Source: Candidatus Eiseniibacteriota bacterium (GTDB taxonomy: Bacteria; Eisenbacteria; RBG-16-71-46; CAZAMP01). Taken from it: a DNA stretch of 64,000 nt. Shown piece after piece: positions 3,199-41,040 of this stretch. The notes under the pieces are model-generated. The model did no database searches and had not been told where the DNA came from. It worked only from the letters and a program-made list of their open reading frames with translations. Positions within the stretch are counted from its first letter, which is position 1. Every line of letters starts with the position of its first letter. Location: assembly GCA_965224245.1 (NCBI GenBank), contig OZ245046.1:1536001-1600000 (forward strand), written 5' to 3'. The position numbers were made by a program, and so were the translations under genes.

Positions 3199-4551
3199 AT
3201 GCCTCCGCCGGCATCCCAATCGCTCGGCCCGGCGCCCCGCGCGCCGGACGGGATCGAGGCGCAAGTGGCTCGTTTTCCTTGGCTGCTCGCTCTCGTGCTG
3301 GCCCTCGCGGGCTGCACGCCTGGCTATCTGGTCGACGGGGATGCCGCGATGGTGCGCGGCGACTACGGCGAGGCCGAGCGGGTGCTCCAGCGAGCCCTGA
3401 TCGTGCACCCCGACGACGCGCGCATCCTGAACCGGCTCGGCTGGGTCGCGCTGAAGGAGTCCCGGACCGACGCCGCGCTCGAGTATCTGACGCGGGCGCG
3501 TGAGCTGGATCCCACGAACGGCGAATCCATCCTCTACCTCGGCATGACCTACGAGGCGCGCGACGACGTGGACGCTGCGGTCGACACGTACCGGCACTAC
3601 GCGTCGCTGGGCGCGCTGTCTCGCGACAAGGGACGCATCCGCGATCGGCTGGAGGCGCTCTCGCGGCGACGGGCCGAGATCTGGGCCGTCGAGCGCCGAG
3701 CGGCCGAGGACAGTCTCGGGGCCGCGCCCACCGACGAGCGCTCGCTGGGCGTGGTCGCGATGTCCCTCTCGAGTGACGACGAGGACTACGCGGGTCTCGG
3801 CGCGGCGCTGGCCGGACAGCTCAGCACCGACCTGGCGAAGGTGCGTGCGCTGACGGTCGTCGAGCGTCTCCGACTCGATGCGATCCTGCGCGAGCTGGAG
3901 CTCGCCGCGTCGGGCGCGGTGGATTCGCGCACGGCCCCCCGCGTTGGACGGCTCCTCGGCGCGCGCACGATCGTGTCCGGCGACATCCTCCCGCTTCCCG
4001 ACGACGTGATCCGTGTCGACCTGGCCATCGTGGACACCGGCGCGGCCCGCGTGATGGCCCAGGTCGGTGACGAGGCGGCGGCCACGGACTTCTTCGAGCT
4101 GGAGTCGGCGCTCGCCTTCAGCATCCTGGACGTGATGGGCATCGAGATAAGCGAGCGCGAGCGGGAGGAGATCGCCCGCGCGCCGACGAGGTCCCTGGCC
4201 GCATTCCTCGCCTACGGGCGGGGCCTGGAGGCCGATCGCGCAGGGCGGCTCGCGGAGGCCGAGAGCGAATACCGGCAGGCTCTGGCCCTGGATCCCTCCT
4301 TCGCCGGCCCGAGCCAGGCGCTCGGCGACCTCGGAACGGGCGCCGTGCCCGTCAGCGATGCCATTGCCACGCTCACCCCGCCGTCCGCGGTGCCGGCAGG
4401 GGCACCCACGGTGGACGACCGGACGCTGGATCTTCTGGACGTGGTCGGTGACGGCACCTGGGGAGAGCGTCCCGACGACGGGCGCGTCGACCCGAATGCG
4501 TCCCAGGTCGAGATCCCGCGTCCGCCGACGCCACCGGAGGGGGGGAAGTAG
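3199..4551 (+). CDS. Lipoprotein with TPR repeats and CsgG/HfaB-like domain
   Basis: Lipobox 'LALAGC'; TPR-like helices; 'LTVVERLRLDAILRELEL...TAPRVGRLLGARTIVSG'; alternative GTG start at 3265. Confidence 0.7.
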   Translation: MPPPASQSLGPAPRAPDGIEAQVARFPWLLALVLALAGCTPGYLVDGDAAMVRGDYGEAERVLQRALIVHPDDARILNRLGWVALKESRTDAALEYLTRARELDPTNGESILYLGMTYEARDDVDAAVDTYRHYASLGALSRDKGRIRDRLEALSRRRAEIWAVERRAAEDSLGAAPTDERSLGVVAMSLSSDDEDYAGLGAALAGQLSTDLAKVRALTVVERLRLDAILRELELAASGAVDSRTAPRVGRLLGARTIVSGDILPLPDDVIRVDLAIVDTGAARVMAQVGDEAAATDFFELESALAFSILDVMGIEISEREREEIARAPTRSLAAFLAYGRGLEADRAGRLAEAESEYRQALALDPSFAGPSQALGDLGTGAVPVSDAIATLTPPSAVPAGAPTVDDRTLDLLDVVGDGTWGERPDDGRVDPNASQVEIPRPPTPPEGGK

Positions 4552-5658
4552 ATGCGCGCGATCAGGGTCACCGGGCTCCGAGCCGCGGTCTCCGCCGTCG
4601 TGCTCGCCGCCCTTCCATCGCTCGCGGCAGCGGGCGGTCACGTGACGGTCGGCGCGGGCGTCGATCGCTGGTCCTGGGACGAGGACGACGTCACCGAGGT
4701 CGGGACCACCGCGACGCTGGGCCTGGAGCTCACGCCGACGGTCACGCTGGAGGCCGTCACCGGATTCTCGGACGTCTCCACCGACATCGGTCCCGGGATC
4801 TCGGGGCTCACCGACACCCAGCTTCGCATCACGGCCGTTCCCCGGCCGGGGGCGATGCTGCGGCTCGGCGTGAACGGTCCCACCGGACAGAGCGAGTTCG
4901 ACGGCGAGGATCTCAGCGCGATCCTGTACCTGACCGATCGCCTGATGAGCATGCCCACGCGCGCGATCGGGCGTGGCGTCGACGTCGACCTGTCGGCCGC
5001 GTACGCCGTCCAGCTCGGATCGGCGGCGCTCGGCGGCGGCATCGGCTACCTCGTCCGCGGAACGCTCACGCCGTTCGCGGACGGAGGCGAGTACGATCCC
5101 GGGGACCGGCTGTCGCTGGCGCTGGGCCTGGATCTCGGGTCGCACGCCTGGCTCGTGCGGCAGAACCTGCGCGTGGCGACCTTCACCGAGGACGTGTACG
5201 ACGATGAGCCCCTGGTCGAGTCCGGCACGCGCGTGGAGTATGCGCTGCGCGGGGTCCGTCGGGCCGTCGGACGCGACCTCTGGGCCGCGTTCCAGTACCG
5301 GGACTTCGGTGAGGCCGAGGCCCGCTCGGACAGCCTCGACGACGCGTCGTTCAATACGGGCAGCCAGGGCGACGTCAAGGTGTCGATCGGCGCCGACCTG
5401 ACGCTCTCGCCGCGCTGGCGGCTGAACCTCTCGACCGGGCTCCGTTTCCTGTCCGAGAACGCCCAGGGCTCCGAAGGCGGAAACCGGTTCGACATCGGTG
5501 CGGACGCGTCCACGCGGCTGCGGCCCGATCTCGTCGTCTCGTTCGGCGCCGGCATCGGATCGGCGTCGGTGGACGCGGCGTCGTCGACGCTGGGCGTCGC
5601 CGACGATGCGTCGTTGACCGGCCTACGGGCCTCGCTCCGCGTGCGCCGGGAGTTCTGA
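4552..5658 (+). CDS. Outer-membrane beta-barrel protein
   Basis: Signal peptide, alternating amphipathic strands, C-terminal Phe ('SLRVRREF'). Confidence 0.65.
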   Translation: MRAIRVTGLRAAVSAVVLAALPSLAAAGGHVTVGAGVDRWSWDEDDVTEVGTTATLGLELTPTVTLEAVTGFSDVSTDIGPGISGLTDTQLRITAVPRPGAMLRLGVNGPTGQSEFDGEDLSAILYLTDRLMSMPTRAIGRGVDVDLSAAYAVQLGSAALGGGIGYLVRGTLTPFADGGEYDPGDRLSLALGLDLGSHAWLVRQNLRVATFTEDVYDDEPLVESGTRVEYALRGVRRAVGRDLWAAFQYRDFGEAEARSDSLDDASFNTGSQGDVKVSIGADLTLSPRWRLNLSTGLRFLSENAQGSEGGNRFDIGADASTRLRPDLVVSFGAGIGSASVDAASSTLGVADDASLTGLRASLRVRREF

Positions 5659-5736
5659 TGCCGCCTGAGGACCGCGCTGGACGCCCACGCCGTGCGCGTC
5701 CGGCGCGCGGGGGCTCTCACGCGAGCGGGTGAGGCC

Positions 5737-7911
5737 ATGGACGAGCTGCCTCGCTACATCCGTCACGTCGGTGAGGTGCTGGCGTCCGCGCTCGCCGACA
5801 CGCACGAGAACGTGACGTATCTCGATCGCGGCGGCATGAGCGTGTTGTTCACCGCCGACCACAAGAAGCTCCGGCAGCGTCACGCGATCAAGGTGTTCAC
5901 CCACGACAGCACGGACGTCGACGACGCGTTCCGGCGCTTCGAGCGTGAAGCGGTCCAGATCGCCAAGCTGAATCACCCGCACATCCGGCGCATCCACGAC
6001 GCCCGCGATCTGCCGGATGCCCGGCTCTCGTTCATGGTCATGGATTTCGTCGACGGCGACAGCCTGTCGGTGCGGCTGAAGCGCGAGTCGATCTCGGTGG
6101 CCGACGGCATCGCGATCGCGTCCCAGGTCACCGGCGCGCTCGGGGCCGCGCACGACCAGGGCATCATCCACCGTGACATCAAGCCCGGGAACGTGCTCCT
6201 GGATCGGGACGGGAAGGCGTATCTGGCCGACTTCGGGATTGCCCGGGATTCGGCCGATCCGGCGCTCACCCAGGCCAACGCGGTTCCGGGAACCGAGCGC
6301 TTCATGGCGCCCGAGCTGTTCGACGGGGTGCCGGCCACCGCCCGCAGCGACCTGTACGCGCTGGGCTGCCTCCTGTACCGGATGTGGCTCGGCGAGGACC
6401 CCTACGCCCGGATCGGGCTGCGGCTGAAGGCCGAGATCGACGCCGGCGTCGTGCACGAGCCCGTGGCTCCCCGGTCGCGGCGGTCCGACCTGCCGCCTCG
6501 CGTGGCGGAGCTGATGGTCGGTCTGGTCGCGATCGACCCGAACCGGCGTCCCGGCGGCTGCCGGGAAGTGCTCCGCGTGCTCGAGGGGGCGCGCGAGTCC
6601 GAGCTGTCCGATCCGACGCTGATGGATGCCACCGAGCGGACCCTGTGGCGCGCGTCCTCCGGGGGCGACGTTCCGACCGGCGGCGCCAGCGGTGGGCCCG
6701 CCGTCGGCGACCGCACCGACCCGCGGACGACCGACACCCCGGCGCCTGCCGGATCGCACGAGGCGCCGGTCGACACGCGCACGGAACGGGCGCCGGCGGA
6801 TCGGACCCGGGCGAGGCCGCGCTGGATCGCGTGGACGGCGGCCGCCGCCGGCGTCCTCGCGTGCGTGATCGCGTTCTGGGTCTGGCGCACATCGACCGGC
6901 GAGACGCCACGGGGCCCCGGCCCGGGCAGCGCGGTGTCGCTGCAGGTCGTCTCCGAGCTGGAGCTGCCGCCGGAGGGTCCCGCGTCCCTTCGCGTGCGGG
7001 TCTCCGGAGGGGAGGGCCGGGAGCTCGCGCTCACGGCGTTCCCGGAGGGGGGCGTCGCGTGCGGGACACCCGCGGACGGGTCCGGGGTTCAGAACTCGGA
7101 CGGATCGATCGTACAGGTGATCGACGCGGGTGCGCCGCGTCCGGCCACCGTGGAGGTCGCCGTGTCGGCCGCCGACGGCGCGGCCGGTCCGAACGTCGGA
7201 TCGGTTCTCGTCGAGCTGCGCGACGACGGCCGGCTGGTCGGCAGCGAGCGCGTCTCGGTTCGAGCCGTGGCGCCGGCCGGCCCGGCGGTGGTCGGCGTCA
7301 CGATCGCCCGCGAGGGGGGGCGGGGCGGCGAGCGGGTCGGGGAGCCGGCGCGCGTCCGGGTGTCGGTCACGAACGACGGTGCGGCGCGCACCGGGGAGGT
7401 CGACGTTCATCTCTTCGTCGAGTCGGTTCGAGCCGACGTCGACGACGCCGCGCACACGCTGGATCCGATCGAGCCCGGTGACACGGCCGAGGTGGTCGCG
7501 ACGGTGACGCCGCGCGACGGCGGGCGGCTCAGCATCGGGGCGCGAGTCGGGGACGGCACCGAGGTGGCCGAGGTGATCCGCACGACGTCCTGGCAGGTGG
7601 CGGCGAGACCGACTCCGCCGGCGGGGCCGCGTACGGTCCGTGTCCGGTGCCGGGTCGAGGGGCTGGCGACCACCGACGACGGACGGCAGCCGGTGGTGTT
7701 CGCGAACGGGCGTGAGGTCGGCCGGGCGCCGCTCGTCTTCGAGTTCGAGGCCCGGGACGGCGACACGATCGAGGTCACGGCCACGAGGGCCGGGTACACG
7801 TACGAGAGGCAAGGAGATCTCATCACCGTTCGTCCGGAAACCGATGAGTATCGGGTGGTCTTCACGGCCAAGCCGGCGTGGAATCTGTCCGGGGGACGCG
7901 ACGGAGGCTAG
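5737..7911 (+). CDS. Membrane-anchored Hanks-type Ser/Thr protein kinase (kinase 1) with extracytoplasmic Ig/CARDB- and PEGA-like domains
   Basis: 'RGGMSVLF', 'AIK', 'HRDIKPGN', 'DFG', 'GT..FMAPE', 'SDLYALG'; Pro/Thr-rich linker; one TM helix; beta-rich C-terminal part. Confidence 0.9.
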   Translation: MDELPRYIRHVGEVLASALADTHENVTYLDRGGMSVLFTADHKKLRQRHAIKVFTHDSTDVDDAFRRFEREAVQIAKLNHPHIRRIHDARDLPDARLSFMVMDFVDGDSLSVRLKRESISVADGIAIASQVTGALGAAHDQGIIHRDIKPGNVLLDRDGKAYLADFGIARDSADPALTQANAVPGTERFMAPELFDGVPATARSDLYALGCLLYRMWLGEDPYARIGLRLKAEIDAGVVHEPVAPRSRRSDLPPRVAELMVGLVAIDPNRRPGGCREVLRVLEGARESELSDPTLMDATERTLWRASSGGDVPTGGASGGPAVGDRTDPRTTDTPAPAGSHEAPVDTRTERAPADRTRARPRWIAWTAAAAGVLACVIAFWVWRTSTGETPRGPGPGSAVSLQVVSELELPPEGPASLRVRVSGGEGRELALTAFPEGGVACGTPADGSGVQNSDGSIVQVIDAGAPRPATVEVAVSAADGAAGPNVGSVLVELRDDGRLVGSERVSVRAVAPAGPAVVGVTIAREGGRGGERVGEPARVRVSVTNDGAARTGEVDVHLFVESVRADVDDAAHTLDPIEPGDTAEVVATVTPRDGGRLSIGARVGDGTEVAEVIRTTSWQVAARPTPPAGPRTVRVRCRVEGLATTDDGRQPVVFANGREVGRAPLVFEFEARDGDTIEVTATRAGYTYERQGDLITVRPETDEYRVVFTAKPAWNLSGGRDGG

Positions 7912-7913
7912 AC

Positions 7914-8921
7914 ATGAAACGCAGGATCGCAATGTTGACGATGGGCCTCGGGGTCGCGCTGGTCGTGACCTCGGGTACCTGGGCCGCGGAGTCGGTCGCG
8001 ACGCTCGATGATGCCCTGGCCGCCTACTACGACGCGGAGTTCGAGACGGCGACCGACGTGCTCGGGCGCTACCTCGACCGGGCCGACCTGGACTCAGAGT
8101 CGCGGGCCGAGGGGCTTCTGTATCTGGCGAAGGTTCAGTGGGCGCGCTCCTCGGAGTCGGGCGCGCGGGCCGCGCTGGAGGAGATTCGCGCGTTCATGCC
8201 CGACTATCGGCCCGAGATGCGCAAGGTGCTCGACATCAAGAACCTCTACTTCGACGTGTTCGGGGCCGCGCTGTCGCGTGAGCCCGGCATCCACACGATC
8301 GCGATCGTGGACTTCACGAACGACTCGTTCGGGAAGGACAAGGAAGAGCTCGAGGGCATGGGCCGCGGCATCGCGCACCTCCTGATCGCCGAGCTCGGAC
8401 ACGCGTTGAACGTGCGCGTCGTGGAGCGCGAACGGCTCGACTACCTGCTGAAGGAGCATGAGCTCAGCAAGTCCGATCTCGTGGACCCCGAGACGGCCGT
8501 CCAGGCCGGCAAGCTCCTCGGCGCGCAGTCGTTCCTGATGGGTGGCTACATGAAGATCGGCGATCGGATGCAGATGTATCCGCGACTCGTCGTGACCGAG
8601 ACCGGCGAGATCAAGCCGCTGAGCCGCGGTCGGATCGAGGGCGACTTCGACGACCTGGCCGAGCTGATCGACGACCTGGCCAGGGCGCTCGTGGAGGACG
8701 TCGGCGGCGTTCTGGAAGGGGAGACCGATCGTTCCGGCGCGCCGGGCATCGACGCGCTGAAGCGCTACGTCGACGGCCTGGAGCGGCTGGACCGCGGAGA
8801 CCTGGACGGAGCCGCGATGGCCTTCCAGGCGGCGCTCGACGCGCATCCGCAGTACGAGGAGGCGGAGGCCTACCTGATCGAGATCCAGCCCCTGGTCGCG
8901 ATGGCCGACACCGATCAGTAG
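7914..8921 (+). CDS. Exported TPR + CsgG/HfaB-like protein
   Basis: Signal peptide 'MKRRIAML..WA'; 'TIAIVDFTN', 'VRVVERERLDYLLKE', 'AVQAGKLLGA'; TPR-like helices at both ends. Confidence 0.7.
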   Translation: MKRRIAMLTMGLGVALVVTSGTWAAESVATLDDALAAYYDAEFETATDVLGRYLDRADLDSESRAEGLLYLAKVQWARSSESGARAALEEIRAFMPDYRPEMRKVLDIKNLYFDVFGAALSREPGIHTIAIVDFTNDSFGKDKEELEGMGRGIAHLLIAELGHALNVRVVERERLDYLLKEHELSKSDLVDPETAVQAGKLLGAQSFLMGGYMKIGDRMQMYPRLVVTETGEIKPLSRGRIEGDFDDLAELIDDLARALVEDVGGVLEGETDRSGAPGIDALKRYVDGLERLDRGDLDGAAMAFQAALDAHPQYEEAEAYLIEIQPLVAMADTDQ

Positions 8922-8954: not shown

Positions 8955-9482
8955 TCAGGCGCCGGTGCGCCGCGGCTCGGGCGGGGGCGCGAACAACGCC
9001 ACGCCGAGCGTGGTCTCGCCGACCACGAAACGCTGTCGCTGGACGAGCGGCTCGTACGTCATCGGAGCCGGATCGGACGGCTTGCGGCGAACGCAGAGCG
9101 TGAGCCCCCGCGGTCGCACGGCCAGCTTGGCCAGGCAGTCGGTCAGGTCCTCGCGAACGGCCCGGATGCCACCGCGCGCATCGTCCACGAAGCTGAGCGG
9201 CGTGTCGCCGTCGCGGAGCTCGAGAATCTCGACCGGCTCCTGCGCATGGGGGTCGATGCCGTAGAGTCGACCCTTCACCGGCCACGCGACCCCGCGCAGA
9301 CACGCCGGTCCGTCGTAGGGGTCGAGCTCGGGCCAGATCACGGGGCACTGCGGACACTCGGTGGCCCCGATGGGCAGGACGTGTCCCTTGGCACAGACGC
9401 GGACGGGATCGATCGACTTGCCGCACACGGCGCACACCGTCGCCCGGAGATCGTTCTCGGCGTAGCACTGCCCGCACTTCAT
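8955..9482 (-). CDS. Double Zn-ribbon protein with possible degenerate FHA-like beta domain
   Basis: 'CGQC..CAVC' and 'CAKGH..CPQC'; start overlaps the upstream stop (ATGA); C-terminus 'LVQRQRFVVGETTLGV' resembles the end of FHA domains. Confidence 0.6.
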   Translation of the reverse strand: MKCGQCYAENDLRATVCAVCGKSIDPVRVCAKGHVLPIGATECPQCPVIWPELDPYDGPACLRGVAWPVKGRLYGIDPHAQEPVEILELRDGDTPLSFVDDARGGIRAVREDLTDCLAKLAVRPRGLTLCVRRKPSDPAPMTYEPLVQRQRFVVGETTLGVALFAPPPEPRRTGA

Positions 9483-10138
9483 CGAGCGCTCCCCACCAGC
9501 TCGAGGGGCACGATCTGAATCGTCAGATGCGAGTGCGCGGCGAGATAGGCCGCGTCGTCGCCGGGGAACTCCGCGCGAAGGACGTCCCAGGACAGGTGCA
9601 CGCGCTCGTCCCCGTCGATCACGAGCTCTTCGACGCCCCCATGGGCCGGGCAGACCGACCGCTTCATGCTCTCCACGTAGAAGCCGTTCGCCGAGAAGCA
9701 GATCAGCTTCGCGCGCCCGGGCTCGACCATCTCGACCACGAGATGCGTACGTGAGACGGTCCCGAAGAGATCGGTTCGCTTTGGAAACACGTGCTGGTGC
9801 GTGATCGGGATGCTGCGCCCGTGGGCCTCGATGGACGCGCCCTGGGCGTGCCGGCCGAAGAACACGGCCTCGTGCCGGCGGAGCGGGTAGGCGCATCCCA
9901 GCATCGGGTCGACGACGCCCGGATCGGCGCGCTCGGAGTAGATGGCGACGACGCCGAGAACGGGGTCGTGCCAGGACGGGGCCTCCTCGTCGGCGCCGGG
10001 GCGCGGGACCAGCGTGATGGACGTCGTCTCGTCCACGTCGGCGTGTCGCGGCGGGACGTACTCCGCGTTGACCGCCCCGCACTCGGGGCAGTGATGGATG
10101 AGGGGCCCCAGCCCGCTCTTGCATGCCGAGCAGCTCAG
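9479..10138 (-). CDS. Zn-ribbon + FHA domain protein (GarA/OdhI-like architecture), probable CTG start
   Basis: 'CSAC..CPEC'; linker 'DETTSI'; FHA pThr-binding motifs 'FFGR', 'VSRTH', 'SANG'; SD GGAGGT 6 nt before CTG. Confidence 0.75.
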   Translation of the reverse strand: MSCSACKSGLGPLIHHCPECGAVNAEYVPPRHADVDETTSITLVPRPGADEEAPSWHDPVLGVVAIYSERADPGVVDPMLGCAYPLRRHEAVFFGRHAQGASIEAHGRSIPITHQHVFPKRTDLFGTVSRTHLVVEMVEPGRAKLICFSANGFYVESMKRSVCPAHGGVEELVIDGDERVHLSWDVLRAEFPGDDAAYLAAHSHLTIQIVPLELVGSAR

Positions 10139-10362: not shown

Positions 10363-12639
10363 ATGGCGTCGGAAGATGCCGATCGTGATCGCCCGTCGTC
10401 GCGACGGTTCGTGATCGGCGACAGTCGACATCACCCGTGCTTTCGACTCGTGGTCGGGCGGACGTCCGCCGACGATCTGACCGCGCCCTTCGTTCGCTAC
10501 GACGCCGGCAACCTGCCGTACGTGGCCTACCTCGCGACGCTGGAGCAGGACGGCGTGGCCATTGCCGATCCGGTGACGGTGCTGATCGAGACCAGCGAGT
10601 ACCCTCCCGCGGCGTCCGGTACGGCGGCCGGCAGCGCGACGAACGCCCACGCCGATCGCGTCTGGGAAGAGGCCGCCGCCCGATGGCGGAGCGATGCCGC
10701 CCAGGGGGTAGCGCGCCTGGTGCCTCAGTATCGCGAGCACGTGCCGCCCGAGGGTGATCTCGTGCGGCATCCGCCACTGGCGTACTGCCGGCGCACCGGC
10801 GAGTACGTCGAGCCCGTCTGTCCCACCTGCCTCGGGCCGCTGGCGACCTGTCGCGACGAGGGCCTCCTTAGGCGCTCGGGCCTGCCGTCCTACGCGGGAA
10901 CACTGTCCCGGTTCCTGACCTGCGCGACCTGCGCCGGGCGAGATCAGACCGTCTTCTACACGTTCGAGCTGCGCGGACCGGACGCTCAGGCGGCCTCGGC
11001 GACCGTGCGCCGTCGCTCGCAGCTCTATCGGGATCTGGGGCCTCAGATCAAGGGGGGCGCCGCCGCGGTTCCCGAGACGCATGCGTGCTTCCGGTGCGCC
11101 CATCGCCACGACTGCTATCCGTCCACCGAGACGACGCAGCCGTGTCCGGCCGAGCGCTACCTCGTACCGGTCTCCTACTACGACTTCCGTTTCCTGCCCG
11201 TCGAGACGCTCCCGCTGCATGCCGACGAGGTCTGTGCGCTCCTCGGCGGCGCCGCGGTCGCCGACGGTACCGAGACGGTCACGTCGCGCAGCCTCGGAGC
11301 CGGGGCCGCCGAGGCCGAGCGGGACGATCCGGCCCGGGCGGCCACCTTCGAGGGGCTCGAGGACGCCCGCAACGCCTTCTTCTTCGCCGGCGACGGCGGC
11401 ATGCTCTACGTGGGCGAGGTCCTGTACCTGAAGCTCCGCGCATTCCGCGACGTGGTGGACGGGGTGGCGGCGCTTCATCGTGCCGGGCAGCGCCCGCATC
11501 TGGCGCTGTCGATCGACCGGGTACGCGGCCTCCGGAAGGCCGCCGGCTCGCGTGTGCCGAGTCGATGGACGCTGGGGCTCCGGATCACCGACCTCCTGAC
11601 CACGGCCCCGTTGCCCGGTCGCGCCCCGGACGACCCGATCTGGGCCACGCCGCACCCAGCCCCGTACGCGGTGCTGCCCCGGGTGATGGCCGTGCCGCAG
11701 ACCCAGATCGTCCGCATGCGCCTGCGCGTCCGGTCGCTCGAGGTCGACGGTGGCACCCAGACGAACGTCCGTGCGCCGAGACGCGTGACCCTCGTCGGCG
11801 AGCTGACCTCCGAGGACTACCGCGACGGCGGACACGGGCGCCTCGACGCGGTGGATCTCGTGGTCCACGTGCCCGGAGGGCCGGACGCCGGGGCGGCGAT
11901 CTCCGGTCGCAAGATCGACGACGCGGCCGGTGGCTTCGTCTTCCGCGGGCGCTCCGGCGAGCTGGACGCGGAGACGGCCGAACGGGTCCGTCAGGCCATC
12001 CCGTCGTCGGCCTCGGTCGAGGTCACGATCCGGCACGCACATCAGGTGACGGCCGACGTCTTCAGCCTGGGATTCATGCTGCTCCGGTTCCTGTTCAACA
12101 ACGACGACGGCCCCGATCCGAGCTGGCTCGACCGTGCGACGCTGACCCGCGTGGCCGCCCAGCTGACGCGGCGTGCCGAGCAGGCCCGCGTGTCGCAGGC
12201 GCTCTCCAACGCCGAGCAGCTGGCCGCGGTGCTCGAGGAGGAGGGGATCGACGCCGACCCCCGCGTGCTCCTCTACCGGGCCGTGGATCGCGAACGGACC
12301 GATCGGGTGACCCTGCCGAAGGGGCTCTGGGAGGACGTCCTGATCCTGGCCATCCGGATGGCCACGCACGTTCCGGGCTGGAGCATCGTGGGGCATGCCG
12401 ACGACGTCGATCCGGACGATCTGGCCGCGCCGATCCAGCTGGTGAGCGATCACCTGGAGCGGCTGATCGATCGCGTGCGGAGCGCGATCCTGGGCTCGGG
12501 CGGACGCAACGGCATCGTGCTCGAGGTGCTCGAGGACTTCTACGCCGACTACGTCGACGCCGCGCAGTCCGGCACGCTGGGGGGATCGTTCGATTCCGAC
12601 GACCCCGAGGTGACAAAGGTGGGATGGAAGCGACAATGA
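10363..12639 (+). CDS. Cys-rich pseudokinase-like protein, first gene of the T6SS operon
   Basis: About 11 Cys in the N-half including CxxC pairs and Cx2Cx5C; kinase-like segments 'GVAALHRAGQRPHLALSIDRV', 'ITDL', 'ADVFSLGFMLLRFL'; ATGA-coupled to the next gene. Confidence 0.55.
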   Translation: MASEDADRDRPSSRRFVIGDSRHHPCFRLVVGRTSADDLTAPFVRYDAGNLPYVAYLATLEQDGVAIADPVTVLIETSEYPPAASGTAAGSATNAHADRVWEEAAARWRSDAAQGVARLVPQYREHVPPEGDLVRHPPLAYCRRTGEYVEPVCPTCLGPLATCRDEGLLRRSGLPSYAGTLSRFLTCATCAGRDQTVFYTFELRGPDAQAASATVRRRSQLYRDLGPQIKGGAAAVPETHACFRCAHRHDCYPSTETTQPCPAERYLVPVSYYDFRFLPVETLPLHADEVCALLGGAAVADGTETVTSRSLGAGAAEAERDDPARAATFEGLEDARNAFFFAGDGGMLYVGEVLYLKLRAFRDVVDGVAALHRAGQRPHLALSIDRVRGLRKAAGSRVPSRWTLGLRITDLLTTAPLPGRAPDDPIWATPHPAPYAVLPRVMAVPQTQIVRMRLRVRSLEVDGGTQTNVRAPRRVTLVGELTSEDYRDGGHGRLDAVDLVVHVPGGPDAGAAISGRKIDDAAGGFVFRGRSGELDAETAERVRQAIPSSASVEVTIRHAHQVTADVFSLGFMLLRFLFNNDDGPDPSWLDRATLTRVAAQLTRRAEQARVSQALSNAEQLAAVLEEEGIDADPRVLLYRAVDRERTDRVTLPKGLWEDVLILAIRMATHVPGWSIVGHADDVDPDDLAAPIQLVSDHLERLIDRVRSAILGSGGRNGIVLEVLEDFYADYVDAAQSGTLGGSFDSDDPEVTKVGWKRQ

Positions 12640-14026: not shown

Positions 14027-15406
14027 ATGCATGAGTGTCATCGGGTGGTGTGGAGCGAAGGGCTCCTGTTGAGTCCACACCACTTCCAGCAGTCCGACCT
14101 GTATCACGAGGCGCAGCTCGCCGAGCGGATGGCCCTCGCGCACCCGTACGGCTGGGGCATCCGCGAGCTCGACATCGACTCTGACGCGCTTCGCCGCGGC
14201 GAGTTCCGGGTGCTCGCATGCCGCGGGATCCTGCCCGGCGGCACCGTGGTCCGGATTCCCGAGTTCGACCCGCCGCCCCCGATCGTCAGCTTCCAGGACA
14301 CGTTCGACGTCCGTGACGAGACGCTCGACTTCTTTCTCGGAGTGCCGTCCCGGCGGACGGGATGGCCCAATCATGTGCGCCGTGGCGACGCGGGGGAGGG
14401 CACCGGCGAGGCCCGGTTCACGATCGCCGAGGTCACCGTGGCCGACGAGACCAGCGGCCGGAACGATCGTTCCATCGAGCGCGCCCAGCAGAACTTCAAG
14501 GTGCTGTTGCCACAGGACCAGCGCGAGCACTACGAGCACATCCCGCTGGCCCGGGTCACCCAGCAGGCCACCGGCGACTTCCGGCTGGTCGAGGAGTTCG
14601 TGCCGCCGGCGATCGCGCTCCAAGCCTCTCCGTATCTCGTGCGCGTCACGCGGGGGCTCCTGGAGCGGCTGAGTGCGCTCTCGACCAAGTTCGGCTCCCG
14701 CTTCGGGGACGGCGGGATCGACGCGCGCGACATCACGCCGGCCAACCTCCGGTTCTTTCTCCACTTCGCGGCCGTGAACACGGCGATCCCGGCGCTCGCG
14801 CATCTCCGGGAGCACCCCAGCGCGCACCCCGAGGTGGCGTACCGCGCGCTCTCGGCGCTGGCCGGGCAGCTGACGGCGTTCAAGGCCAGCCGCTTCCATC
14901 CCCGCGACGTCCCGCTGTACCGGCACGACGCGCTGGGGAAGACCTTCGCCGACCTCGAGCGGATCCTCATCGAGCTGCTCGACATCCGCGACGAGGACCA
15001 GGGCTACGGCGTGCTCCAGCTCGACTCGGACGGGCACGGGCGCTACGCGGTCGTCGTGGACGACCGCTACCTGAGCGGGTCCGCGGCCCTGATCCTGTCG
15101 GTGGCCAGCGAGGGGCTCAGCGAGGATCAGATCCAGGACGTCGTGCGGCGGGGGCGCTTGATCGTGGCCTCGGCCGACGCGATCGACGCGAAGATCGCGC
15201 GCAACATCCCGGGCCTGCCCCTGGCCCACCTGAGTCGGCCGCCGTCGGTCATCCCGCCGCGCGGCGGCACCCTCTACTTCGAGCTGGACCGTCGCGATCG
15301 CGAATGGGAGGCCATCTCGGCCACGAAGAAGATCGCCGTGCAGATCCCGGCCGAGCTGCGTGACGGCTCGACGATCGAGCTGCTGGGCGTGGAGGCACGC
15401 CGATGA
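14027..15406 (+). CDS. tssK: T6SS baseplate subunit TssK
   Basis: 'VVWSEGLLLSPHHFQQSDLY', 'PYGWGI', 'YRHDALGKTF', 'GLPLAHL..PP..IP...YFEL'. Confidence 0.95.
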   Translation: MHECHRVVWSEGLLLSPHHFQQSDLYHEAQLAERMALAHPYGWGIRELDIDSDALRRGEFRVLACRGILPGGTVVRIPEFDPPPPIVSFQDTFDVRDETLDFFLGVPSRRTGWPNHVRRGDAGEGTGEARFTIAEVTVADETSGRNDRSIERAQQNFKVLLPQDQREHYEHIPLARVTQQATGDFRLVEEFVPPAIALQASPYLVRVTRGLLERLSALSTKFGSRFGDGGIDARDITPANLRFFLHFAAVNTAIPALAHLREHPSAHPEVAYRALSALAGQLTAFKASRFHPRDVPLYRHDALGKTFADLERILIELLDIRDEDQGYGVLQLDSDGHGRYAVVVDDRYLSGSAALILSVASEGLSEDQIQDVVRRGRLIVASADAIDAKIARNIPGLPLAHLSRPPSVIPPRGGTLYFELDRRDREWEAISATKKIAVQIPAELRDGSTIELLGVEARR

Positions 15407-16071
15407 CGACCGCGTCGCATGCGACGTCGGCCGCATCCGACGCCGGCGCGGCGGGAGCGCTCGTGGCGGCGTCGGGTCCCTTGCTCTCGCTGATCATCGT
15501 GCTCCGCCGCGCGAAGGACCTGGACGCATTCGGTGACATCCGGGGGACGGTGGCGCGCCTCGTCGAGGATCTCCGGACGAGGGCGCGCATGGAGCGGATG
15601 AACCCGCGCGACGTCGACGACGTGATCTACGCCCTGGCGGCCACGATCGACGAGACGCTCCTGATGGCCGACTGGTCCGGTCGTAGTCCCTGGGCGCAGG
15701 AGCCCCTGGCGCGACGCTACTGCAACGACGAGTTCGTCGGCGTGGGGTTCTTCGACAAGCTCGAAGCCCTGCGTCTGGACTTCGCCGCGCGACGCGACGT
15801 GGTCGAGGTGTTCTACTACTGCCTCGTCGCCGGCTTCCGGGGCCGAATGGCCGAGGATCCGGCTGCGTTCGATCGGCTGATGAGCGCCCTCTCGGCCGAT
15901 CTGCAGCCGGGTTCCCGGGAGCTCTCTCCGGATCTCGGCGCGGCGCGCGGGGGGCGGCTGCGCGCGACGGTCAACCGCTTCCCGTTCATCTGGATCTTCG
16001 TCGTGCTCGGCGCGACCGTCTTCATCTTCTACCTGGTTGCGTCACTCTACCTGGCGAGCGTCGCGACGTGA
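15403..16071 (+). CDS. tssL: T6SS inner-membrane protein TssL (DotU family)
   Basis: 'YALAATIDE', 'W...PL', 'GVGFFDKL', 'EVFYYCLVAGFRG'; C-terminal TM; no OmpA extension. Confidence 0.92.
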   Translation: MTTASHATSAASDAGAAGALVAASGPLLSLIIVLRRAKDLDAFGDIRGTVARLVEDLRTRARMERMNPRDVDDVIYALAATIDETLLMADWSGRSPWAQEPLARRYCNDEFVGVGFFDKLEALRLDFAARRDVVEVFYYCLVAGFRGRMAEDPAAFDRLMSALSADLQPGSRELSPDLGAARGGRLRATVNRFPFIWIFVVLGATVFIFYLVASLYLASVAT

Positions 16072-16143: not shown

Positions 16144-19100
16144 GTGGCCATGCTGTTGCCGATGTTGCTGCCGATCGGGCTGCCGGTCGCGTTGCTGATA
16201 CTCGTTCTGTTCCTGGCCCGGGCGAAGTTCGCGTTCCTGGCCGCGCTCCCGCTGTGGGTGTTTCTGGGGATCGTGGCGCTTCTCCTCGTCGTGGCGGCTC
16301 TGATCATCGTCATCCGCATCCGCAAGCAGAAGGCGGACGCCGCCGCGCTCGAGGCGGGGATCCTCGACGCGAAGGGTGGAGAGGGCGTCTCCCAGGCCGA
16401 CCTGGACCAGATGCAGGAGAAGCTCCGCGACGCGGTGGCGCGCCTGAAGGCCGGCCCCGAGGGGGCCAAGGCGCTGTACTCGATCCCGTGGTACCTGGTC
16501 ATGGGGCCGCCGGCCATCGGAAAGACGACGCTGATCCGGAACTCGGGTCTCGACTTCCCGAACCTCACCACCGCCGAGAAGATGCGCGGCACCGGCGGCA
16601 CGCGCGACTGCGACTGGTGGTTCAGCTCCGATGCGATCCTGCTGGATACCGCGGGACGGTACGCGCAGAGCCGAGAACGCACGGACTCCGAGGAGTGGAA
16701 CGCGTTCCTGGACCTTCTGAAGAAGCACCGCCGGCAGGGCCCCATCAACGGTCTCATCCTGGGCTACAGCATCGAGACCCTGATCGACAAGGACGACAGC
16801 CACCTCGTGGACTCGGCGCGCGAGCTGCGCCAGCTCCTGGACGACGTGCTGGAGCGCCTGGGCTGGACCTTCCCCACGTACGTGCTGTTCACGAAGTGCG
16901 ACCTGATCGCGGGGTTCGTCGAGTTCTTCTCGTCGCTCTCACCGCTCGAGCGCCAGGCCGCCTGGGGCTTTCCCGTGGAGGTCGCCGAGGGACCCGAGCA
17001 GCACGCGGCGGAACGCTTCTCCGAGCGCTTCCGGCGTCTCGTCGAGCGGACGCGTGCGCTCCGGGCCGGCCGCATCCGGCCCAGCGCCGGCGTGGACGAC
17101 TGGTCGCGTGCGATCACGTTCCCCGAAGCGTTCGAGAGCCTCGAGCGCAAGCTGCACCTGTTCATCGAGACGCTGTTCGCACCCAACCCGTACAAGCGGG
17201 ACTATCCGCTGCTCCGTGGCGTGTACTTCTCGAGCGGCTGTCAGGACGGGGCGCCGTTCGACCTCGTGGTCAAGGAGATCGAGCGGGTGCTCGGCGGCGC
17301 CTCTCACGATCGAGGCGACGCGCTGGTGCCGACCGAGGATGCGTACTTCGTCCAGGAGCTCTTCTCCAAGGTGCTCGCGACCGACCGGCAGCTCGTCCAG
17401 CGCACCCACCGGGAGGGGAAGCGCCGGTTCCGGATGCGCGCGATCCTCAGCGCCTGCATGGGCGTGGTGACGGTGCTGTCGTGCCTGTGGTTCGCCACCT
17501 CGTGCACGCTGGTCAAGAACAAGATCGATGCGTCCCAGGGGCTGGAGGAGAAGCTACAGCGCGACGACGGCTCGAACATGGTCTACACGTTGAATCTCCT
17601 CGATCAGCTGTATGGAGAGGTGTCCGGCTCGTTCCGGGTCCTCCCGTTCGTCGTGGCCAGGGCCCCGCGTGAGGACCTCCGAGAGGCCTACCGGCGCGCG
17701 TCCCGCGAGAAGGTGCTCGGTCCCCTCGAGAAGGAGCTGCTCGAGAAGGGCCGGGACGCGTCGCTTCCCGCGTTCGAGGTGCGCGATCTCCTGACCACCG
17801 AGGTGCTGCTCCTGTCGCCCGAGAATCAATCGGCCGTCCCGGACACCGCGCGCTTCCAGCGTACGCTGCGAGAGCTCGCCCGGTTCGACGGCGACACGCC
17901 GGTCCGCACCGTCGACCAGCTGCGCGAGGTGGGGAGGCGGTTCCTGGAGAGCGGCGAGCCGCTGCGGCCGACGACGGAGGACGATCGCCAGCAGATGCGG
18001 CGGTGGGCGCGAAGGCTCAACGCCAGCCACCATCCCGAGGCCATCGTGGCCGCCATCGTGGCCGAGGCGGCCGACGCTCTGGACGATCTCGAGCTGTCCG
18101 ATCTCCTGGGCTCCACCGACGACGACCTTCTCCGCGGCAGCCGGGAGATTCCGGCGGCGTACGCGCGCGACGGCTGGGAGCGCGTGGTGTATCCCCGACT
18201 CTCGTCGCTCGACGACTGGATCGAGGGCGATCGCACCCTCATTCGACTGGTCGGCGAGACGCCACGCGACGACCCCACGCTCCGCGAAGACGTCGTGACC
18301 TACTACGCCGAGGAGCTGGCCGACGCGTGGAGCGACTTCCTCCGGTCCGTCTCCCTGCGCACCGGAAGCAGCTGTGACGAGGCGTCGTCGGCCTATCGCA
18401 CGCTCAAGAGCGGCACCCGCTCGCCGCTTCTGGCTCTTCTGAAGAACGCGGCCGCCCAGGTGAGCTTCGAAGGGGGACCGGCCGATGCGATCGGGGTGGG
18501 CTCGGGGCTCCTGGTGCCCATCCGGCGACAGACCGCCCCGTTGACGGACATGGTCGCCGAGCCCGAGGACGGCGCCGCGCCGATCGAGATGTACGAGGAG
18601 ATCCTGGGGGACCTCTACCACGAGGTCGGCGAGTGCGCCGACGAGCCCGGACGCGACCCCGAGGGGCTGGAGGACATCGAGGACTTCGCATCGGACTATC
18701 GTGACGACCACGCGGGCTCCGACATCTCGAGGTCTCTGGAGCTGCTGCTGCAGGCGCCGGGCGAGGACGTGAAGACGCTCCACGCCTCGGCGAAGATCGG
18801 CGAGACGATCGGTCGCTGGCAGCGGGGTGTAGTTGACGAGTGGAGGACGGTCGCGTCCAGCTACCCGTTCGATGGCCGCTCGTCGTCCGGCGCGGACGTG
18901 AAGGCCGTTTGTGACGTTCTCCGGCGTGACGGCGCCATCGATGCGTTCGTGGAGACGCTCGGCGAGCGGGGCCGACAGCCGGGCGCGGCGCTCGAGCGTG
19001 CGCGAACCCGACTGACGCAGGTGCGGCGTGGCATCGAGATCGGCGACGGGACACTCGAGACGAGCTTCCGGATCACGTTCCGGTCCAGCTCGGACTGGAT

Positions 19101-19500
19101 CTCGGCGTCGACACCCGAGGGGGAGGAGAACAGACGGAGGATCGACACCGTTCGCTTCTTCGTAAACGGCGACGAGAAGGTCGTCCGCGGCAACACCGAC
19201 GAGCACGTGTTCACGTGGTCGAGCGGCGACGACGATCTCACGTGCGGGATCGAGCTGGTGTACGGCGGTCGCACCATCGGCGAGCTGCGCCGATCGGGGC
19301 CCTGGGGCGCCTTCCAGCTGTTCGATGCGGCCCGGATGACGCCGACCGGTGCCTCCGGCACGTATCGCGTCACGTGGTCGTTCCCCGACGCGGGCGTGAC
19401 GCTCGAGGTGCTCCTGCGCACGGAGAGCGGGGAGCCGTCGCCGTTCGCCCGGGACTCCGCGTTCCGCGGCTTCGCTCTCCCCGACTCTCCGATCGAGTAG
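16144..19500 (+). CDS. tssM: T6SS membrane subunit TssM (IcmF)
   Basis: 'PWYLVMGPPAIGKTT', 'GTRDCDWWF', 'LLDTAGRY', 'PINGLI', 'FTKCDLIAGF', 'LRGVYFSS', 'GPWGAFQL'. Confidence 0.95.
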   Translation: MAMLLPMLLPIGLPVALLILVLFLARAKFAFLAALPLWVFLGIVALLLVVAALIIVIRIRKQKADAAALEAGILDAKGGEGVSQADLDQMQEKLRDAVARLKAGPEGAKALYSIPWYLVMGPPAIGKTTLIRNSGLDFPNLTTAEKMRGTGGTRDCDWWFSSDAILLDTAGRYAQSRERTDSEEWNAFLDLLKKHRRQGPINGLILGYSIETLIDKDDSHLVDSARELRQLLDDVLERLGWTFPTYVLFTKCDLIAGFVEFFSSLSPLERQAAWGFPVEVAEGPEQHAAERFSERFRRLVERTRALRAGRIRPSAGVDDWSRAITFPEAFESLERKLHLFIETLFAPNPYKRDYPLLRGVYFSSGCQDGAPFDLVVKEIERVLGGASHDRGDALVPTEDAYFVQELFSKVLATDRQLVQRTHREGKRRFRMRAILSACMGVVTVLSCLWFATSCTLVKNKIDASQGLEEKLQRDDGSNMVYTLNLLDQLYGEVSGSFRVLPFVVARAPREDLREAYRRASREKVLGPLEKELLEKGRDASLPAFEVRDLLTTEVLLLSPENQSAVPDTARFQRTLRELARFDGDTPVRTVDQLREVGRRFLESGEPLRPTTEDDRQQMRRWARRLNASHHPEAIVAAIVAEAADALDDLELSDLLGSTDDDLLRGSREIPAAYARDGWERVVYPRLSSLDDWIEGDRTLIRLVGETPRDDPTLREDVVTYYAEELADAWSDFLRSVSLRTGSSCDEASSAYRTLKSGTRSPLLALLKNAAAQVSFEGGPADAIGVGSGLLVPIRRQTAPLTDMVAEPEDGAAPIEMYEEILGDLYHEVGECADEPGRDPEGLEDIEDFASDYRDDHAGSDISRSLELLLQAPGEDVKTLHASAKIGETIGRWQRGVVDEWRTVASSYPFDGRSSSGADVKAVCDVLRRDGAIDAFVETLGERGRQPGAALERARTRLTQVRRGIEIGDGTLETSFRITFRSSSDWISASTPEGEENRRRIDTVRFFVNGDEKVVRGNTDEHVFTWSSGDDDLTCGIELVYGGRTIGELRRSGPWGAFQLFDAARMTPTGASGTYRVTWSFPDAGVTLEVLLRTESGEPSPFARDSAFRGFALPDSPIE

Positions 19501-19509
19501 CGAGGCGTC

Positions 19510-20394
19510 ATGGCTCAGTACGGATGCTTCGGCAAGCTTCCGGTCAGCTACGAGTTCATCCGCTCGCGTCTCGCCGAGCTGGCGCCCACCGGCATGGATC
19601 GCTGGATCGGGGACGGGCTCGGCATGGCCCGGGCCGAGGTCGGTCCCGGCTACGCCAACGCGGTCCGGGAGATGCCGACCTATCACTTCGTGTGGTCGAT
19701 GGGCGGTCCCGCCGTCGCCGGGGCACTGCGTGCCGGCCGGGACGAGGCGGGGCGCGCGCACCCGTTCGTGGTCTTCGCCTCGGTCGGCGATCCGGTCGGG
19801 GGTGGAGGCGGCTGGACACCGGCGGAGGTCGGCGCCGTCGTGCGAGCCGCCGAGCGAGCCGGGGCGGCCGCCGCCGAGGCGCGCACCGAGGACGACGTGA
19901 AGGCATGCGTCGCGGCGGCGCGCGAGCTCGACGACGCACTGACCGACAGTGAACGCGTGCTCGACGTCGCCGGTGCGGCACCACTCGCGCGAGCTCTGGG
20001 TATCGCCGGCGGACGCGACGGGTTCCGGGCCGCGCTCACCTGGCCGGATGCGGCCGCACGCACCGGCTTCGAATGTCCGATCGGGGCCCGTGACGGGATC
20101 GATGCGTTCGGCGACGTCGCATTCTGGGAGCGGCTCACGTGCGCACGGGCCGGGCTGAGGCCTGGGACCGGCGTATGGTTCTGGACCGCGCCCGGCGGCG
20201 GTGTCGCGGGGCGCTGGATCCGGTTTTCGGACTCGCCGGGCCCGCGAGCATTCGTGACGCTCCTTCGGCGCCGTGACGACGACCCCGAGGTCCACCACGT
20301 GGCGCGCCCCGCCGATGCGGCCGCCGATCCCCTTGCAGGTGGTGATGCCGAGGGCGGGGAGGAGACGCTGGCCCGCCTTCTCTCGGGGCTCTGA
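19510..20394 (+). CDS. tagF: T6SS-associated regulator TagF
   Basis: 'GCFGKLP..EFI', 'DRWI', 'RDEAGRAHPF'; follows tssM. Confidence 0.8.
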   Translation: MAQYGCFGKLPVSYEFIRSRLAELAPTGMDRWIGDGLGMARAEVGPGYANAVREMPTYHFVWSMGGPAVAGALRAGRDEAGRAHPFVVFASVGDPVGGGGGWTPAEVGAVVRAAERAGAAAAEARTEDDVKACVAAARELDDALTDSERVLDVAGAAPLARALGIAGGRDGFRAALTWPDAAARTGFECPIGARDGIDAFGDVAFWERLTCARAGLRPGTGVWFWTAPGGGVAGRWIRFSDSPGPRAFVTLLRRRDDDPEVHHVARPADAAADPLAGGDAEGGEETLARLLSGL

Positions 20395-21751: not shown

Positions 21752-22276
21752 ATGGGGAGCGTTCACGACAAGCTCAAGCGCGTGCGAAAACCACGCGTGC
21801 ACATCACGTACGAGGTCGAGACCGGCAACGCCATGGTCAAGAAGGAGCTGCCGTTCGTCGTGGGTGTGATGGGTGACTTTTCCGGCGATCCGACCTCGCC
21901 GTTGAAATCGATGAAGGATCGCAACTTCGTCCAGATCGACCGCGACAACTTCAACGACGTGATGACCAAGATGACCCCGGGAGTCAACCTCAAGGTCGCC
22001 AACACGATCAAGGGCGACGGCAGCGAGATGGCGGTCAATCTTCAGTTCAAGTCGATCGAGGACTTCGAGCCCGGCCGCATCGTGGACCAGGTCGAGCCGC
22101 TGAAGAAGCTGCTCGAGACCCGCAACAAGCTCCGCGATCTCATGTCCAAGGTGGATCGCTCGGAGGACCTCGAGGCCGTCCTCGAGAAGGTGCTGCAGAA
22201 CAGCGAGGACATCAAGGCAATCGCCAGCCAGCTCGGCGTCGAGGCGCCGTCGGGCGACGAAGGAGGTGACGCGTGA
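21752..22276 (+). CDS. tssB: T6SS contractile sheath small subunit TssB
   Basis: '[10 protein letters not shown]', '[15 protein letters not shown]', 'IDRDNF', 'DFEP'. Confidence 0.97.
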
Positions 22277-35901: not shown

Positions 35902-35911
35902 GAGAGTCGTC

Positions 35912-37144: not shown

Positions 37145-37145
37145 G

Positions 37146-37601: not shown

Positions 37602-37625
37602 CGTTCGCCGCCGAAGGAACCTCCG

Positions 37626-39760: not shown

Positions 39761-39767
39761 GTTCCGC

Positions 39768-40421: not shown

Positions 40422-40448
40422 GCCGTCGACAGTCATGGAGGATGGGCG

Positions 40449-41015: not shown

Positions 41016-41040
41016 CCGACGACCGGCCCGGGGCGACGCG

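Follow-up and report, generated by a model that had tools for sequence, protein, structure and literature searches.

The gene at positions 10363–12639 of a 64,000-nucleotide stretch of the Candidatus Eiseniibacteriota contig OZ245046.1 (the whole stretch is called the window below) encodes P0001, a protein of 758 residues that stands at the head of a type VI secretion system (T6SS) gene cluster. We propose, with a probability of about 0.7, that P0001 is a soluble, cytoplasmic, non-catalytic accessory protein of the T6SS, derived from a protein kinase, which partners TagH and acts as the head of a TagH that is split between two genes. The proposal is based on the homology of P0001 with kinases, on the residues lost from it and its relatives, on gene order, on gene fusions found elsewhere, and on co-occurrence with T6SS genes. 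A preliminary description, made by eye from the sequence, had called the protein a catalytically dead scaffold or sensor. The loss of catalysis is supported by the replacement of four of five key residues, and a scaffold or sensor role is what gene order and fusions suggest.

Kinase homology of P0001

We aligned 47 full-length members of the P0001 family (alignment A1) with 14 bona fide Ser/Thr kinase domains from the same genome (alignment A2) by profile–profile comparison with hhalign. Three collinear local matches were obtained, in the order of the kinase domain. Residues 48–125 of P0001 matched kinase positions 8–70, which contain the Gly loop, β3 and helix C (E 1.6e-3, probability 16%); residues 358–429 matched positions 101–168, from helix E through the catalytic loop to DFG (E 5.4e-7, probability 92%); and residues 564–627 matched positions 180–241, helix F to helix H (E 3.8e-6, probability 87%). 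With hhalign in a default run, the third match covered residues 562–628 and positions 178–242, at an E-value of 3.6e-10 and a probability of 96.7%. When the family was represented by 15 less degenerate relatives, the same matches appeared in the same order with E-values of 1.5e-4, 9.6e-10 and 1.6e-5. Control kinase profiles, one reversed and 10 with shuffled columns, gave best E-values of 0.17–0.96 and scores of at most 19.2, as against 59.8, 53.5 and 34.4 for the real profile, and the alignment of motifs is therefore beyond chance.

The motifs concerned are those picked out in the preliminary description, which had placed GVAALHRAGQRPHLALSIDRV (residues 367–387, nt 11461–11523) at helix E and the catalytic loop, ‘ITDL’ (residues 408–411, nt 11584–11595) at DFG, and ADVFSLGFMLLRFL (residues 564–577, nt 12052–12093) at helix F. 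Comparison with the 14 kinases reproduced each placement, pairing ‘PHLALSIDRV’ with ‘VHRDLKPSNI’, ‘ITDL’ with ‘MDFG’, and ‘ADVFSLG’ with ‘TDIWALG’. In the 15-relative subset, PHLDLKPENAMV aligns with VHRDLKPSNIML and ‘KLIDLAA’ with ‘KIMDFGLA’.

Other searches pointed the same way. Kinases made up 17 of the 20 matches of the family profile to PDB sequences at E ≤ 10, the best of all being 9fmo_A over residues 353–417 (E 0.0033). Pkinase was matched at E ≤ 0.01 by two of the 47 family members, and the relatives P0074 and P0059 matched it with E-values of 6.8e-6 and 2.5e-5 (26.1 and 24.3 bits, below the PF00069 gathering score of 31.7 bits). The language-model neighbours of P0001 and P0078 in the ESM Atlas were mostly Pkinase clusters, with scores of 0.94–0.96. 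These sequence comparisons support the descent of P0001 from a Hanks-type Ser/Thr kinase.

Replacement of catalytic residues

At the positions of the β3 Lys, the helix C Glu, the HRD Asp, the catalytic-loop Lys and the catalytic-loop Asn, P0001 has L74, A104, A381, S383 and R386 respectively, so that the lack of a catalytic Asp, Lys and Asn noticed by eye agrees with hhalign. P0001 shares with active kinases the DFG Asp (D410) and the Asp and Gly of helix F (D-x-W-x-x-G); it lacks their β3 Lys/helix C Glu pair, HRD Asp, catalytic-loop Lys and Asn. Its Gly-rich loop is reduced.

We then scored five key residues (β3 Lys, helix C Glu, HRD Asp, catalytic-loop Asn and DFG Asp) across the family. 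P0001 and its nine closest relatives have lost four of the five and retain only the DFG Asp, which is present in 10 of 10. The losses are thus common to the whole ten-member clade, as the conservation check proposed for them now shows: the β3 Lys is replaced by Leu, Val, Tyr, Met or Ala, the helix C Glu by Ala or Gly, the HRD Asp by Ala, Ser or Gly, and the Asn by Arg in all ten, while position 383 is Ser, Thr, Ala or Asp and never Lys. R401 is also invariant in these 10 members. Among the rows of A1, position 74 is Lys in 32 of 47 and position 104 is Glu in 33 of 47; D410 is present in 34, G570 in 46 and D565 in all 47. Further invariant residues of A1 are L160, L169, E352, D495 (47/47) and W656, and K357 is nearly so.

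The degree of degeneracy varies widely, and distant relatives have four or five of the key residues. Of 118 representatives (those of at least 640 residues among 150 listed, 32 shorter ones having been dropped), 11 retain all five key residues, P0078 and P0014 among them, 27 four, 13 three, 19 two, 40 one and eight none, the counts being less reliable for a distant subgroup that matches over the N-terminal half only and is gapped beyond residue 420. The FHA-fused forms that were scanned (6/6) have the Lys, the Glu, H-[G/A], the Asn and the DFG Asp, and lack the catalytic Asp alone. With substitutions at four of its five catalytic or nucleotide-binding positions, P0001 is most likely non-catalytic and most likely does not phosphorylate.

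A large family without a name

A Pfam search with P0001 gave nothing above threshold, the sole match being SPO22 (E 0.0098, below the cut-off); there was no match in NCBIfam, and none to PDB sequences at E ≤ 10. A match to a characterised family, which would have counted against the preliminary description, was thus not found above threshold in these three collections. A word-indexed homologue search returned the query alone, and an exhaustive search was required. Using HMMER against 1.84 billion representatives, we found 652 clusters (at 50% identity) with E ≤ 1e-3, 461 with E ≤ 1e-10 and 62 with E ≤ 1e-30. When the names of ten relatives were looked up, three were ‘hypothetical protein’ and one was ‘FHA domain-containing protein [Planctomycetota]’; one further cluster has a ‘serine/threonine protein kinase’ member, and the remainder are nameless. 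In genome records, relatives were found in a Candidatus Eisenbacteria metagenome-assembled genome (MAG; 39% identity) and in several Planctomycetota MAGs (28–31%).

A full-text search of the literature found no description of a T6SS component of this kind, in agreement with the preliminary description. One article that contains ‘type VI secretion’, ‘Fha’ and ‘inactive kinase’ (PMC7159879) was set aside, as the portion of it that we consulted concerns unrelated conflict systems. The family is large, unnamed and, as far as we have searched, new to print.

Domain architecture and predicted structure

The kinase-like segments of P0001 are 70–120 residues each and are interrupted by inserts of approximately 150 and 230 residues. 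All 12 Cys residues fall within residues 26–291, and the N-terminal half is indeed Cys-rich, as had been noted. The accompanying claim that this half has no obvious N-lobe has to be revised, since a remnant N-lobe is detectable at about residues 20–135 by the first of the three hhalign matches, more clearly so in the less degenerate relatives. Because this remnant precedes it, the Cys-rich module is an insertion between the lobes and not a replacement of the N-lobe.

The conservation of the Cys residues falls into two sets that covary. C142, C163, C242 and C245 are each present in 41–45 of the 47 rows of A1, whereas C156, C187 and C190 are jointly present in 30 rows and jointly absent from 17, without exception (47/47), and C153 is missing solely in rows that also lack these three. 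From this pattern we infer two Zn(Cys)4 sites, a near-universal site A (C142, C163, C242, C245) and a dispensable site B (C153, C156, C187, C190).

The second insert was described as β-rich, over 100 residues long, and lying between ‘ITDL’ and helix F. The stretch between these motifs is 152 residues, and an AlphaFold2 model predicts six strands in it (447–462, 473–482, 496–502, 510–521, 524–531 and 549–557). The full model, built with the family alignment, has a mean predicted local distance difference test score (pLDDT) of 87.8 and a predicted template modelling score (pTM) of 0.88; a model of the C-lobe fragment (residues 335–690) has a pLDDT of 90.7. Along the full model there follow a long helix (347–375), short strands at 387–391 and 404–408, D410, the six insert strands, a helix (561–578) that bears D565-x-x-x-L-G570, and more helices. 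This predicted order fits that of a kinase C-lobe. The structural matches of the fragment in Foldseek were small β-barrels for the insert (7lrn_B, 3w2e and Upf1 domain 1B, E ∼2e-2), that to 7lrn_B having a probability of 0.99 over 115 columns. P0001 has no predicted transmembrane helix, because its highest Kyte–Doolittle mean over a 19-residue window is 1.41, below the threshold of at least 1.6. The open reading frame (ORF) has no internal stops; the G+C content of the window is approximately 70%.

Linkage to TagH and to T6SS genes

The P0001 gene ends in a TGA (12637–12639) that overlaps the next gene by 4 nt if the latter starts at ATG 12636 (ATGA) or by 16 nt if it starts at ATG 12624. The preliminary description had spoken of translational coupling to a TagH-C-like gene, and the overlap is confirmed, while profiles support the identity of the neighbour. 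The profile of the downstream protein matches the post-FHA part of the fused relatives described below over 228 columns (hhalign E 9e-7; reversed control E 0.14), and its hidden Markov model matches a Planctomycete TagH ORF with an E-value of 2.6e-8. Its orthologues match PF20232 with E-values of 5.4e-4, 0.05 and 0.08, the best reaching 20.2 bits as against a cut-off of 23.7; the window copy has no Pfam match, PF20232 included. Pairwise BLASTP of the downstream protein against P0036 and P0032 gave nothing, so the relation is revealed by profiles alone. The profile comparisons support the assignment of the gene as TagH-C-like. Such a gene lies directly downstream of the kinase-like gene in seven of the seven close loci that have sequence there.

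Neither P0001 nor the downstream protein has an FHA (PF00498) match. The five FHA matches of the genome all lie outside the window, and no protein of the window matches FHA, PF20232 or PP2C_2 in Pfam. Elsewhere in the family FHA and the kinase-like part occur together. Among members of approximately 1100 residues, six of the eight scanned carry an FHA domain C-terminal to the kinase-like part, and five of those six have T6SS_FHA_C at E ≤ 0.01 (four above the cut-off). At four Planctomycete loci (L022–L025) the kinase-like gene is followed by an ORF with FHA and TagH-C, and then by TssK-L-M.

The order kinase-like gene, TagH-C-like gene, lipoprotein, TssK, TssL, TssM, TagF is found in the window and in L018–L020, and orthologues with 37–42% identity have the same gene order. 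In the window the T6SS set downstream of P0001 is complete, with TssK, TssL, TssM, TagF, TssA, TssB, two TssC, TagJ/ImpE, TssE, TssF, TssG and ClpV; it also includes Hcp, VgrG, DUF6484 and DUF2169 genes. Twelve of 14 non-self loci are linked to the T6SS, and in 11 of the 14 TssK lies within ∼2.3 kb downstream; at L021, where the sequence ends inside the gene, TssA/B/C/F are just upstream. We also surveyed 41 related genomes, which are kin and not independent, so that the counts are descriptive only: TssK is present in 13 and the kinase-like gene in five, TssK adjoins it in 5/5, and it is found in none of the 28 genomes that lack TssK.

Six of the eight T6SS-positive genomes without the kinase-like gene were examined (loci L028–L033, from relatives G021, G007, G009, G038, G006 and G036). 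Four have a stand-alone TagH-C-like ORF of 240–280 residues before TssK, and the other two have in that place an ORF of 945–998 residues with a canonical kinase domain. An FHA-less TagH may be the rule in the T6SS class that these loci share with the window. A complex prediction for P0001 16–744 with TagH-C-like 22–290 gave scores of 0.07 and 0.12, where 0.32 is the mark to be reached, and is neutral on binding.

Comparison with known systems

Post-translational control of T6SS firing is known mainly through PpkA-Fha-PppA and TagF, in a few Proteobacteria. The PpkA pathway is found in Pseudomonas aeruginosa (H1) and Agrobacterium tumefaciens; PpkA sits in the membrane, is catalytically active and carries a periplasmic domain after the kinase domain, and TagF acts at the cytoplasmic face of the membrane complex/baseplate. 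In the part of the source that we consulted, PpkA (TagE), Fha1 (TagH) and PppA make up a threonine phosphorylation pathway of the T6SS (PMC3953482). The window resembles that arrangement in that TagH and the tagH-to-tagF block are linked with a lineage of Hanks-type kinases, TagF is present, and a Ser/Thr kinase is encoded 2.5 kb upstream. P0001 differs from PpkA in having no predicted transmembrane helix, in the loss of four of five catalytic residues, and in its Cys-rich and β-rich inserts. Moreover, its family adjoins or is fused to TagH, whereas PpkA is a membrane kinase that phosphorylates TagH, and the window has no match to the PP2C_2 phosphatase family.

The canonical T6SS block runs tagH-tssJ-tssK-tssL-tssM-tagF. 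With TagH/Fha proteins (PF00498 plus PF20232), the locus shares a gene with profile homology to the C-terminal part of TagH, and the kinase-like and TagH-C-like pair occupies the tagH position ahead of tssJ-K-L-M. Where the FHA head would be expected there is a separate kinase-derived protein of 758 residues, and the only nearby FHA-like domain is on the divergently transcribed Zn-ribbon protein (9479–10132). We read the pair as a split TagH because the place of tagH is held by a kinase-like gene and an FHA-less TagH-C gene.

Two systems outside the T6SS invite comparison. Mycobacterial PknG is an active kinase in which rubredoxin-type Cys motifs precede the N-lobe, and the FHA protein GarA is its substrate. 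Going by this general description, PknG and P0001 have in common a kinase domain, a Cys4 metal module (probable in P0001) and an FHA partner; PknG differs in being active, in having its metal module before the N-lobe instead of between the lobes, and in being unconnected with the T6SS. YukC/EssB is presented, in the portion of the preprint that we consulted, as a pseudokinase component of the type VIIb secretion system (bioRxiv 10.1101/2020.05.09.085852). It offers a parallel for a dead kinase fold built into a secretion machine, by analogy only, as it belongs to another secretion system and other phyla and is membrane-anchored.

Proposed role of P0001 and alternatives to it

We envisage that P0001 keeps both kinase lobes, with a Cys-rich module that probably holds two zinc ions between them and a β-rich domain at the activation segment, and that this dead kinase module stands in place of the phosphothreonine-reading FHA head of TagH. 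It would bind the FHA-less TagH-C protein made from the overlapping gene, and from the cytoplasmic side of the TssK/TssL/TssM/TagF assembly the two would license or position firing. At the membrane complex and baseplate P0001 would then have an adaptor or switching function, with the divergent Zn-ribbon/FHA proteins and the nearby kinase (5692–7911) as candidate signal inputs. If this is correct, the family adds to T6SS control a mostly dead, kinase-derived component that is physically tied to TagH. The members of the family, which range naturally from seemingly active to wholly degenerate, would make what TagH docks to and senses testable beyond the model organisms, and T6SS clusters of Candidatus Eisenbacteria and Planctomycetota would be better annotated once the family had a model.

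A bolder extension, which we offer tentatively and think more likely wrong than right, is a hard-wired phospho-switch. Here a dead, TagH-bound kinase would have assumed the role of the FHA head, so that docking became independent of phosphorylation and the inserts gate assembly in response to redox, metal or protein cues. The family series of five, four and so on to one and no key residues would then record how, step by step, an enzyme became a structural part of a secretion apparatus.

Several observations weigh against the role proposed for P0001. P0001 itself has no Pkinase match in Pfam at E ≤ 0.1, no scanned family member attains the Pkinase gathering score, and the N-lobe match is weak by itself (probability 16–52%). 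The canonical residues can be lost without every enzymatic activity being lost, and E352, D495, D565, K357, R386 and R401 could form a different active site. Comparison of a predicted structure with kinase folds had been suggested as a check, and while the order of helices and strands fits, Foldseek gave no match at E ≤ 0.001 and no kinase among the matches listed, down to rank 50, for either the full model against the PDB or the fragment 335–690 against the PDB and BFVD. These searches therefore leave the kinase fold without three-dimensional confirmation. The matches of the full model in the PDB were to long helices of the GyrA type, with template modelling scores of at most 0.08, and were discarded as meaningless. 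The inserts may defeat a local structural aligner, which is an explanation and not evidence, and the negative search should temper the phrase ‘kinase fold’. The linkage to the T6SS also has exceptions. Two of the 14 non-self loci (L026, 5928–8117, and L027, 9380–11362), in Planctomycetota MAGs, encode full-length members with no T6SS gene in flanks of 6–10 kb, where no TagH gene was detected either; the family may have uses outside the T6SS, or the loci may be split. The gene is also missing from eight of the 13 TssK-positive related genomes, and it is therefore not required by all T6SS of the class.

One alternative is that P0001 is still an enzyme, either an atypical kinase with relocated residues or a kinase-fold protein whose nucleotide-dependent activity is of another type, such as AMPylation or glutamylation, with TagH-C, TssL or a different T6SS protein as its target. 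Activities of other kinds can reside in pseudokinase folds; D410 is kept throughout the clade (10/10), the charged residues just listed are invariant or nearly so among the 47 members or, for R386 and R401, within the clade, and the 11 of 118 relatives with all five canonical residues may be active. We nevertheless consider such an activity unlikely, given that 10 of 10 clade members have a small or hydrophobic residue or Arg at each of the β3 Lys, helix C Glu, HRD Asp and Asn positions, that the Gly-rich loop is reduced, and that the activation segment, which is the substrate platform, has become a β-rich domain family-wide.

The failure of Foldseek to list a kinase for model or fragment, together with the absence of Pfam, NCBIfam and PDB sequence matches for P0001 itself, would suit a new fold whose kinase-like motifs are convergent. 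This is hard to reconcile with three matches in kinase order with E-values down to 3.6e-10, when no control fell below 0.17, or with relatives that bear a near-canonical ‘HLDLKPEN’, a ‘DLG/DFG’, A-x-K and the helix C Glu. The predicted secondary-structure order fits a C-lobe, with the D-x-x-x-L-G of helix F, and inserts of 150–230 residues would disrupt local structural alignments; we regard a non-kinase origin as very unlikely. There is still less to recommend the idea that P0001 is a mere passenger of the cluster, acting in the regulation of another process or as an effector or immunity gene. The two loci without nearby T6SS genes and the eight of 13 TssK-positive relatives that lack the gene would be accounted for, yet a passenger would not be expected to lead the operon from a fixed position and overlap TagH-C, to be fused to FHA-TagH in other lineages, or never to occur without TssK among the 41 genomes, and the effector and immunity genes of the cluster lie 24–29 kb downstream. 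Our preference thus remains with a non-catalytic, kinase-derived partner of TagH.

Other genes of the window

The segments of P0001 and the genes around it are collected in Table 1. The small lipoprotein between the TagH-C-like gene and TssK has no Pfam family; its position suggests that it may be a divergent TssJ. The T6SS operon has tandem TssC (VipB plus VipB_2) paralogues at 22273–23760 and 23923–25449 (E 2.8e-133 and 5.6e-96), and the effector end of the cluster, at 35332–41832, includes DUF6484, an unassigned 410-residue ORF, Imm11 and Imm49 among its genes.

Table 1. Positions in the window of P0001, its putative segments and nearby genes (aa, amino acids).
Feature	Position	Strand	Remarks
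TPR/CsgG-like protein	3199–4551		envelope-type module
Outer membrane protein β-barrel, weak match	4552–5658		envelope-type module
Canonical Ser/Thr kinase, Pkinase + CARDB	5692–7911	+	Pkinase E 6.6e-40
Second CsgG/TPR protein	7878–8921		envelope-type module
Second Zn-ribbon protein	8955–9482	−	Zn_Ribbon_1 and DZR matches below cut-off
Zn-ribbon + divergent FHA protein	9479–10132	−	divergent from P0001; start uncertain, somewhat upstream of 10132
P0001, probable kinase-derived, catalytically degenerate T6SS accessory protein	10363–12639	+	758 aa; open ORF; family of 652 clusters
Putative remnant kinase N-lobe, ~residues 20–135 (Gly-loop remnant, β3 with L74, helix C with A104)	10420–10767	+	hhalign
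Cys-rich insertion between lobes, residues 138–262	10774–11148	+	Cys conservation
Probable helix E, degenerate catalytic loop H379-L-A-L-S-I-D-R386, DFG-like ‘TDL’ (D410)	11401–11598	+	hhalign, 9fmo_A, model
Predicted β-rich insert replacing activation segment, residues 413–560	11599–12042	+	model strands; D495
Probable helix F (D565, G570) to helix H/I equivalents, and long C-terminal helix 689–736	12043–12597	+	hhalign, model
FHA-less TagH C-terminal homologue, 290 aa	12624–13496	+	overlaps end of kinase-like gene; profile homology
Small lipoprotein, lipobox AIGC, TssJ position, 153 aa	13499–13960	+	position kept in L003, L004, L005, L018, L020
TssK	14027–15406	+	Pfam E 2.3e-101
TssL/DotU	15403–16071	+	Pfam E 1.5e-40
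TssM	16144–19500	+	Pfam E 2.1e-69
TagF	19510–20394	+	Pfam E 1.3e-16
PAAR-like toxin domain protein	36699–37601		effector end of cluster
DUF2169 protein	37626–38669		effector end of cluster
AHH nuclease	39735–40421		effector end of cluster

The canonical Ser/Thr kinase upstream of P0001 is the candidate active kinase of the locus, and its proximity to the cluster suggests a link to the T6SS. An envelope-type module (3199–8921), whose CsgG/TPR proteins are lipoproteins, surrounds it, and CsgG/TPR homologues are also encoded upstream of TssK in L028, L029, L031 and L032.

The two Zn-ribbon genes on the opposite strand overlap each other by 4 nt (9479–9482), and the pair is kept divergent beside the kinase-like gene in L002, L004, L005, L018, L019 and L021. 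The window copy of the protein encoded nearer to P0001 has no Pfam FHA match; its orthologues in L002, L004 and L005 exceed the FHA cut-off (22.3, 21.2 and 21.6 bits, as against 20.7), and it has a weak hhalign match to the FHA domains of the fused relatives (E 1.1e-3, probability 21%). The C-terminal half of the second Zn-ribbon protein has no domain recognisable by Pfam or by hhalign against FHA, an FHA assignment having been rejected at an E-value of 0.048. The gene for this second protein adjoins the kinase-like gene in L002, L004, L005 and L018–L021.

In the genome as a whole (6.9 Mb) Pkinase is matched 100 times, and 99 of these matches exceed the cut-off. Directly after the T6SS cluster, at 42043–45816, the window encodes a further kinase of 1257 residues.

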